Shown piece after piece: positions 6,865 through 7,812 of a stretch of 64,000 nt of DNA. Location of the stretch: sequence record NC_106721.1. One strand, given 5' to 3'. Position 1 is the stretch's first letter, and every line of letters starts with the position of its first letter. Made by a program: the position numbers and the translations under genes. The notes under the pieces are model-generated. The model made no database searches, was not told the origin of the DNA, and saw nothing but the letters and a program-made list of their open reading frames with translations. The stretch comes from Escherichia phage EC148.

Positions 6865-7812
6865 TTACTTGTTACGCATATCCATGATCATTTGACCATC
6901 GTAGCCAGTACCTACCACAGTCTGAGGTACACCACCTTGATACTTCTGAGCACGGATCATTTCAACTTCCAGTTGTTTCCAACGAATCATTTCAGGAGTA
7001 ATGGTACGTTGCAATGCGGCGTTAGCTTCAGCTTCTTTCTTAGCTGCGTACAGTTTAGCATCTGCGTCACGTTCATTAGCAATAGCTTGGTTGTTACGAG
7101 CTTCACGATCTGCTTCTGCTTGTTTAACTTTTTGCTGTGCTTCCTGTTCAACGCGAGCAAGTTCAGCTTTCGCAGCATTAACTTGCTCTTCACGAACTTT
7201 GGTATTCTGTACCTGTTCCATGATTACTGGCGGCAAGGTAATATCCTGAAGGAATACCTGCTTAACTGTGTAACCATATGGGCGCGCATACTCTTCAACT
7301 TCCTGTTGAATTGCAGTTTGCAATTGAGCCTGAATTTTAGCATCAAATAAATCTTGTGCTTTAGGTACAGACTTACCAAACTCACGAATAGTAGACAGTA
7401 ATTTTTCAGTTACATACTTGTCTAGTGCCTGATCCTGAGTACCTGCGTTAATACGGTTAATCGGTGCTTTAGAACCATCAAACTGCAACATAACAGTCAG
7501 GTCAACAGTGGATTTAAACTTATCCTGGCTAGGAACCTGAAGTTTATCTAATTTTACAGCAATATCTTTTGTACTAAAAGTATCGAAAGATGCAAACGGG
7601 TTTACAAGATGGAAGCCCGGCAATACTGGATTAGGGTCTACTTTACCCAGGAATGTTTGGGTTTTAACCGTACCATCAGAAACAATAGTATATGAATTAA
7701 AAGCTAGGATTAAACCTGCTAAACCAACTACAGCACCAATACCCCAACGTTTAATAGTACGAATTACTTTCTGCTCAGAAGTCAGTTCTTTCATATTTTT
7801 AGTAGCAAACAT
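6865..7812 (-). CDS. SPFH (band-7/prohibitin/HflC-like) membrane protein
   Basis: N-terminal TM helix (GIGAVVGLAGLILAF), SPFH-like core, long Ala/Glu/Gln-rich coiled coil; RBS AAGGAAA. Confidence 0.7.
   Translation of the reverse strand: MFATKNMKELTSEQKVIRTIKRWGIGAVVGLAGLILAFNSYTIVSDGTVKTQTFLGKVDPNPVLPGFHLVNPFASFDTFSTKDIAVKLDKLQVPSQDKFKSTVDLTVMLQFDGSKAPINRINAGTQDQALDKYVTEKLLSTIREFGKSVPKAQDLFDAKIQAQLQTAIQQEVEEYARPYGYTVKQVFLQDITLPPVIMEQVQNTKVREEQVNAAKAELARVEQEAQQKVKQAEADREARNNQAIANERDADAKLYAAKKEAEANAALQRTITPEMIRWKQLEVEMIRAQKYQGGVPQTVVGTGYDGQMIMDMRNK

Follow-up and report, generated by a model that had tools for sequence, protein, structure and literature searches.

SPFH proteins organize membranes and gate membrane proteases across all domains of life. 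HflK/C, the prohibitins, and the erlins are oriented N-in, with the SPFH part away from the cytosol; AAA proteases of the FtsH type are the targets of HflK/C and prohibitin cages, and the erlins are tied to ER-associated degradation. In E. coli, HflK and HflC (PDB 7WI3, 7VHP, and 9CZ2) are the products of an hflK-hflC gene pair, form a hetero-oligomer, and follow the order TM segment, SPFH1, SPFH2, CC1, CC2, and C terminus. The eukaryotic type II SPFH cages of erlin and prohibitin 1/2 are hetero-oligomers of two paralogs of ca. 270 to 340 aa, whose clients (m-AAA protease and ERAD ligases) have no presence as such in bacteria. Of the stomatin type is E. coli QmcA (PDB 8Z5G), which has an NfeD partner, YbbJ.

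Many large virulent phages also carry an SPFH protein. SPFH/Band 7 Pfam matches were listed for the T4-like phages RB43, 44RR, and Aeh1 in a table of 2006 (PMC1524935), and GenBank records carry labels such as “SPFH domain-containing protein/band 7 family,” “PHB domain-containing protein,” “prohibitin family protein,” or “putative modulator of FtsH protease.” Two genome papers call the role of SPFH proteins in phages unclear (PMC7760394, PMC13239085). Our literature search on phage SPFH proteins returned genome-annotation mentions only, with no experimental datum in the papers searched; it did not find “T5.080,” the name of the gene in T5, in the main text of any paper, and the HIDEN-SEQ preprint gave no match for SPFH or T5-like taxon names. 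The gene described here is one of these already catalogued, widespread phage genes, and what we add to its annotation is modest: the label “lipoprotein” is wrong, the protein is no specific HflC ortholog, and it has chromosomal relatives. To this come a predicted orientation like that of HflK/C and prohibitin and signs of exchange between unrelated virulent phages.

The stretch of DNA analyzed (the window) comprises 64,000 nucleotides of Escherichia phage EC148 (NC_106721.1) and is Tequintavirus (T5-like) DNA. Its first 8 kb contain 12 tRNA genes, like the T5 tRNA region. The ca. 3 kb around the SPFH gene are 100% identical to Escherichia phages SUT_E420, T5_ev212, and MM-1 and match a total of 445 phage records, nearly all of them Escherichia or Salmonella Tequintavirus/Epseptimavirus. 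The gene is a minus-strand ORF with an ATG start and a stop codon at 6865-6867 (Table 1). Its product of 315 aa shares 312 residues with T5.080 (YP_006908.1), the three substitutions being A3N, I17V, and K258N, and matches PHROG_200 (E = 1.9e-86), a family that also takes in the T4-like RB43ORF139c, 44RRORF098c, and Aeh1ORF064c. In the T5 reference genome, T5.080 occupies the same site, with tRNA-Arg on one side and an [quoted passage not shown] on the other, and there is no difference of substance. A search of the whole window found no second SPFH paralog, and tblastn matches fell in one place per phage record.

Table 1. Coordinates of the SPFH gene, its predicted domains, and its transcription signals in the window
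Feature	Coordinates	Strand	Evidence
Bidirectional rho-independent terminator	~6758..6791	both	Fold; T5 annotation
Terminator hairpin, 12-bp stem then UUUUCUGUAUUU	6811..6841	-	Terminator scan; fold
SPFH/Band-7 CDS, T5.080 ortholog	6865..7812	-	ORF list; 312/315 identity; Pfam Band_7; PHROG_200
C-terminal tail YxGGVPQTVVG..., codons 291-315	6868..6942	-	Conservation; model
Ala/Glu/Gln-rich helix aa 195-270 and helix aa 273-290	6943..7230	-	Model; composition; structural alignment
SPFH1 (beta-rich) and SPFH2 (alpha/beta), codons 52-225	7138..7659	-	Pfam envelope; model; invariant columns
Predicted TM segment, codons 23-41	7690..7746	-	Hydropathy; charge count; model helix
Shine-Dalgarno AAGGA	7818..7822	-	5 nt 5' of the SPFH gene ATG
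tRNA-Arg(UCU)	7847..7921	-	ARAGORN; Rfam 49.3 bits; T5 annotation
Sigma-70-like promoter TTGCTA-17-TATAAT	8719..8747	-	Promoter scan; T5 P16-17 equivalent stretch

The preliminary description had assigned to this ORF, whose limits proved exact, a phage-encoded protein with an N-terminal transmembrane helix, an SPFH-like core, and a long Ala/Glu/Gln-rich coiled coil. All of these elements were recovered. The sole hydrophobic segment (ca. aa 23-41; best 19-residue Kyte-Doolittle window 1.79, from aa 25) is a predicted TM segment, kept in 22/22 close relatives and in the 40 distant ones examined. It is followed by a Pfam Band_7 match (PF01145) at aa 52-225, with E = 2e-17 and 64.2 bits against a cutoff of 23.6, which spans profile positions 13-176 of 176, and the motif VPSQDK within it (aa 93-98) is invariant in the alignment of relatives. 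The predicted helix at aa 195-270 is rich in Ala (18/76), Glu (11/76), and Gln (9/76), and a second one extends over aa 273-290. An AlphaFold2 monomer model, computed from an alignment of 22 relatives (56 to 88% identical), reached a mean pLDDT of 78.6 and laid out a TM helix (aa 12-39), a beta-rich part (41-111), an alpha/beta part (113-192), and the two helices, the counterparts of CC1 and CC2 in the walls of SPFH cages. The tail beyond them (aa 291-315) is conserved, has short strands predicted at pLDDT <50 in the monomer model, and is a candidate cap or oligomerization element.

When this model was compared with the PDB using Foldseek, the top matches were SPFH proteins only, over 270 to 305 columns with a probability of 1.00 and E values of 2e-14 to 1e-7: erlin1/2 (2e-14), prohibitin 1/2 (5e-13), HflK/C (3e-12), stomatin (5e-12), QmcA (2e-10), and flotillin (2e-8). 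The preliminary description was to count as refuted if profile searches did not bear out an SPFH fold; Pfam, PDB sequence matches (QmcA and the prohibitins), and AlphaFold/Foldseek all bore it out, and membership in the SPFH superfamily is practically certain. Since every full-length structural match listed is a subunit of a membrane-attached cage, assembly into a ring or cage is likely by analogy, and since the phage gene is single, not an hflK-hflC pair, this would be a homo-oligomer.

Which SPFH family the protein stands closest to is a separate matter. A single-sequence search of the PDB gave QmcA as the best hit (1.8e-6), together with prohibitin-1/2, and no match to HflK or HflC at E ≤ 0.01. 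With a broader family profile (40 sequences, identity down to 23%), the values were 2.3e-17 for QmcA, 4.7e-17 for PHB2, 2.5e-16 for PHB1, 3.4e-15 for HflC, ca. 3e-7 for stomatin, and 2.6e-4 for HflK. PHB1/2, QmcA, and HflC thus score about equally, erlin and PHB being ahead structurally by a small margin. The NCBIfam library, which we take to include the HflK and HflC equivalogs (TIGR01933 and TIGR01932), yielded no family at E ≤ 0.01, and we rejected an HflC/HflK ortholog for this reason. The term “HflC-like,” used before for this protein, holds only at the level of the superfamily; among relatives of solved structure HflC does not come first, and the gene is single. The structural match to HflK/C extends over ca. 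280 to 300 columns (E of 3e-12 to 1e-8) at ca. 17% identity. Erlin and prohibitin-1/2, which are the best structural matches, with PHB1/2 also among the best sequence matches, are of a size similar to the phage protein but only 16 to 19% identical to it, and two paralogs build their cages versus one phage gene. QmcA, the best PDB sequence match and of similar length, differs in that no NfeD-type neighbor accompanies the phage gene or the two cellular homologs examined; Pfam found neither an NfeD domain nor a second Band_7 gene among the neighbors scanned. On this evidence, the phage protein appears as a stand-alone SPFH subfamily, about equidistant from QmcA, the prohibitins, and HflC.

The charges around the TM segment suggest how the protein is oriented. 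The 22-residue N flank contains 6 K/R and 2 D/E, while the C flank has 2 K/R, and the excess of K/R on the N side of the segment recurs in 20/22 close relatives. Because the N flank is rich in K/R, the positive-inside rule suggests that the protein is N-in and that its SPFH part faces the periplasm, which is also the N-in, periplasm-facing orientation of HflK/C and, as in erlin and prohibitin, places the SPFH part away from the cytosol. QmcA faces the cytoplasm, opposite to this predicted topology, and in the alignment it lacks the basic N flank ahead of its hydrophobic segment, unlike the phage protein. The T5 annotation describes T5.080 as a “lipoprotein ... contains single transmembrane domain,” and T5 RefSeq T5.080, PHROG_200, and many GenBank records bear the label “lipoprotein.” These database labels are all that favors such a reading, for which there is next to no chance. 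The protein has 0 cysteines and no lipobox pattern, and for this reason the label is wrong; cysteine is also absent from 18/22 close relatives, the N region, at 22 residues, exceeds what a lipoprotein would have, and the first SPFH strand follows immediately on the hydrophobic segment.

The SPFH start codon is 34 nt from the end of the tRNA-Arg gene, both being on the minus strand. A promoter scan found no promoter in this gap, so co-transcription of tRNA-Arg and the SPFH gene is probable. Upstream of tRNA-Arg is a stretch annotated in T5 as the stable “RNAX,” and the sigma-70-like promoter in Table 1 probably starts a transcript made up of RNAX, tRNA-Arg, and the SPFH gene. The T5 annotation places promoter P16-17 over the 3' end of T5.081, a position carried over to the window by coordinate arithmetic. 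Promoter, stable-RNA region, tRNA-Arg, SPFH gene, and terminator all have one orientation, in agreement with the T5 annotation of P16-17 and of the terminator. We take P16-17 to be an early promoter, as on the known T5 map, which would presumably set the expression timing of the SPFH gene, and the protein is probably made early in infection.

The gene is dispensable for laboratory growth, yet almost all T5-like phages retain it. Dispensability follows from a genome-wide CRISPRi-ART screen of T5, in which T5.080, entered under “Ambiguous / lipoprotein / phrog_200,” was scored “Not Fit” (PMC11879866, supplementary files 8 and 16), a score that we read as no measurable fitness cost on T5.080 knockdown, and from the natural Epseptimavirus NG_S8, which has just two short remnants of the SPFH gene and lacks the neighboring cassette (T5.077-079). 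The cassette genes T5.077-079 were also “Not Fit” in that screen (PMC11879866). In phage “bastian,” the SPFH gene is split. As T5 is tractable and the gene dispensable, a deletion mutant would be easy to make and test.

Taken as a whole, the best explanation, to which we give a probability of roughly 0.55, is that the protein is a non-essential accessory, a periplasm-facing membrane scaffold with host inner-membrane clients. An early sigma-70-type promoter would give a transcript with stable RNAs, tRNA-Arg, and the SPFH mRNA. The single N-terminal helix would then anchor the protein in the host inner membrane, with its short basic N terminus in the cytoplasm and everything from SPFH1/2 through the long helices to the C-terminal tail on the periplasmic side. 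Most likely, a homo-oligomeric ring or cage would self-assemble there and fence off a patch of the inner membrane, trapping or shielding membrane proteins of the host (or of the phage). The periplasm-facing cage, considered alone, is fairly probable. Membrane-protein quality control would be the likeliest class of clients, FtsH first, and any advantage would depend on the host, on stress, or on competition, with plaque formation having no need of the protein.

FtsH is the leading candidate client because of what HflK/C and prohibitin cages act on, and by that analogy we name it tentatively, with more doubt than trust. Against such a link stand the low identity to HflK/C, the NCBIfam result, and the family-profile value for HflK, just 2.6e-4. 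It is unlikely that the protein goes as far as being a viral mimic of HflK/C that captures FtsH, or that co-assembles with HflK/C and poisons it, reprogramming inner-membrane proteolysis. If this were true, phage membrane proteins might be stabilized or membrane-acting defenses blunted, for instance, by a gene that T5-like, T4-like, and T7-like phages have exchanged and Morganellaceae have domesticated, and it would be the first function assigned to any phage-encoded SPFH protein.

The probable early transcription unit and the predicted periplasmic orientation would also fit a role in protecting the envelope, either by excluding superinfecting DNA at the inner membrane or by stabilizing and repairing the membrane after genome injection and under a heavy load of phage membrane proteins, much as bacterial SPFH proteins have been proposed to protect against stress. 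A gene that is dispensable yet widely kept is typical of conditional competition functions. T5, however, already has Llp, which blocks the receptor, and PHROG and Pfam show no similarity to known exclusion proteins. For a link between SPFH proteins and superinfection exclusion, our literature search gave genome-annotation mentions only. Further points in favor are the speculation in one genome paper (one of PMC7760394/PMC13239085) about a role in adsorption or DNA entry and the reported connection of E. coli HflKC to stress tolerance and respiration. We regard envelope protection as quite improbable.

To see how far the gene has spread, we collected its relatives in phages and bacteria. By tblastn, the SPFH protein was found in 724 phage records from unrelated phage groups. 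The T5-like phages (about 440 records) are >88% identical to it. T4-like phages of Escherichia, Klebsiella, Cronobacter, Enterobacter, and Citrobacter (RB16, RB43, PMBT1, and others) have 76 to 78% identity, Aeromonas T4-like phages ca. 61%, and Vibrio phages 31 to 41%, and a 37% identical copy lies within a T7-like replication module on a Vibrio chromosome. Among 1.84 billion cluster representatives, searched exhaustively, 957 relatives reached E ≤ 1e-3, and 36 reached E ≤ 1e-30. From these comparisons, the gene appears to have been traded between unrelated virulent phages, and its being kept in so many records across unrelated groups argues for a selected function.

Scanning bacterial genomes, we found chromosomal copies with 57 to 59% identity in Morganella/Providencia and others with 33 to 41% identity in Methylophaga, Methylococcaceae, Desulfocapsaceae, and others. 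These chromosomal genes share length, architecture, and a Band_7 match with the phage gene. At the two loci examined, those of Morganella and Methylophaga, the SPFH gene is single, without hflK/hflC or NfeD neighbors, and unlike the phage gene it sits in ordinary chromosomal surroundings: the Morganella copy lies between a group of decarboxylase, permease, TetR, and dehydrogenase genes and a second group with HlyD and a C39-ABC exporter, and the Methylophaga copy is downstream of trpFBA-accD-folC. In a rough neighbor-joining tree, computed without support values, the Morganellaceae copies grouped with the phages in one clade, nested among them, and the methylotroph copies formed a clade of their own outside it.

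An accessory, conditionally useful gene that is mobile (76 to 78% between T5-like and T4-like phages) shows a pattern common for anti-defense genes, and the cage might neutralize inner-membrane abortive-infection effectors or hide a membrane trigger from them. The housekeeping context of the methylotroph homologs (trpFBA-accD-folC) argues instead for a general membrane role; in addition, the literature search found no link between SPFH proteins and an anti-phage system, and PADLOC gave no match, its library being one of defense, not anti-defense, proteins. Counter-defense seems to us very unlikely.

Some phage neighborhoods point to the control of lysis timing, in which the cage would sequester or stabilize a holin, antiholin, or spanin and so tune the lysis time or lysis inhibition. 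In the T4-like RB16, rI (the lysis-inhibition regulator) and rI.-1 directly precede the ortholog and share its strand, and in Aeromonas phage 31, rI is ca. 3 kb from it; the predicted periplasmic orientation would also suit rI and the periplasmic domain of the holin. This adjacency counts for little, because T4-like genomes vary between tk and rI, a region in which unrelated ORFs gather. In the window, moreover, a tRNA and a terminator border the gene and no lysis gene adjoins it, and the Vibrio phage and T7-like contexts have no adjoining lysis genes either. Such a role is rather improbable, and the accessory scaffold remains the reading we prefer.

On its 3' side, the SPFH gene meets three plus-strand ORFs heading towards it (5058-6107, 6129-6545, which is Gln-rich, and 6555-6749, which is Cys-rich), which are the orthologs of T5.077-079. 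We rejected the idea that this low-complexity cassette was inherited together with the SPFH gene, since homologs of T5.077 do not extend past T5-like phages (221 records versus about 440 T5-like records with SPFH), apart from a single partial match in a Pseudomonas phage. According to the preliminary description, the gene and the cassette converge on a shared terminator region. The convergence stands, and the hairpin at ca. 6758-6791, with its symmetric A-tract/GC-stem/T-tract and a dG of about -22.8 kcal/mol on each strand, is the terminator common to both; the region, however, has two tandem hairpins, of which this one alone is shared. The other lies 24 nt past the SPFH stop codon (dG -20.7, z -3.1) and has a T-run on the minus strand only, and we read it as the first terminator of the SPFH gene itself. 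Rfam matches to anti-hemB and ctRNA on the terminators were far under the gathering scores and were taken as hairpin look-alikes. The hairpin nearer the gene also includes the GCGC of the 32.6% major nick site of T5, where the T5 record has a misc_feature, “major DNA single-chain interruption.”

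The SPFH gene, which encodes a Band_7 membrane protein orthologous to T5.080, adjoins a fixed T5 nick, since the GCGC in its first terminator hairpin corresponds to the "major DNA single-chain interruption" of the T5 annotation (T5 39746-39747, or 32.6% of the genome by our own arithmetic).

Features near the SPFH gene and its relatives
Feature	Sequence	Coordinates	Strand	Remarks
Toprim-only "DNA primase" fragment	Window	4333-4902	-	Short, 189 aa; ortholog of T5.076
Three low-complexity ORFs	Window	5058-6749	+	Orthologs of T5.077-079; convergent with SPFH gene
GCGC motif	Window	6817-6820		Inside terminator hairpin 6811-6841, just past SPFH stop codon
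tRNA-like element	Window	8424-8495	-	Rfam tRNA, 35.5 bits
SleB-type cell-wall hydrolase and cREC_REC protein	Window	9429-9896 and 9884-10201	-, -	Overlapping; Pfam
SPFH gene neighborhood, phage RB16	L002	3263-4927
SPFH gene, Morganella morganii chromosome	L018	5968-6939

Outside phages, the SPFH gene was found on Morganella and Providencia chromosomes (loci L007-L019), with 57-59% identity to the phage protein and in a non-phage gene neighborhood. These copies were nested within the phage clade in a rough neighbor-joining tree, built without support values, and for this reason the sequences hint at a transfer of the gene between phage and host. Among the public records with SPFH relatives, the labels of OR848805.1, NZ_JBHSCL010000010.1 (L006), and cluster P0028 are probably wrong. 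The record named "Listeria phage LM 4-14-1" is 3.6 kb long and has 99.7% identity to the T5-like SPFH gene. The T4-like version is present in two sequences as large as T4-like phage genomes, one a contig of 178 kb labeled "Flagellimonas marina" and the other a "Klebsiella pneumoniae plasmid" of 174 kb. In phage RB16, the lysis-inhibition regulator rI and rI.-1 immediately precede the SPFH gene on the same strand, an adjacency that gives a weak lead toward a lysis-timing role for the protein.

The three ORFs of the convergent cassette had no match in Pfam, NCBIfam, or PADLOC and were assigned to PHROG families without known function. One changes in composition from acidic/His-rich to Gly-rich and hydrophobic and then to Gln/Asn-rich with a CCC motif, the second is Gln-rich, and the third is a Cys-rich peptide of 64 aa. 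Relatives of T5.077 were confined to T5-like phages, except for a partial match in Pseudomonas phage KPP23. In CRISPRi-ART, a genome-wide T5 knock-down screen, T5.077, T5.078, and T5.079 were each scored "Not Fit" (PMC11879866). The "DNA primase" fragment T5.076 is listed as "anti-defense / Known" in the supplement of the same screen, with a "Semi-Fit" score (PMC11879866).

Among the other neighboring genes, the SleB-type hydrolase (Pfam Hydrolase_2, 3.8e-25) is the "endolysin" (T5.083) of the T5 annotation and, judged by eye, looks to have an N-terminal signal peptide. The gene overlapping it encodes a small protein with a cyclic-phosphate processing receiver domain (cREC_REC, 3.8e-15). The tRNA-like element, for which ARAGORN made no tRNA call, scored above the Rfam gathering score of 29 and lies within the stretch annotated in T5 as the stable 719-nt "RNAX."
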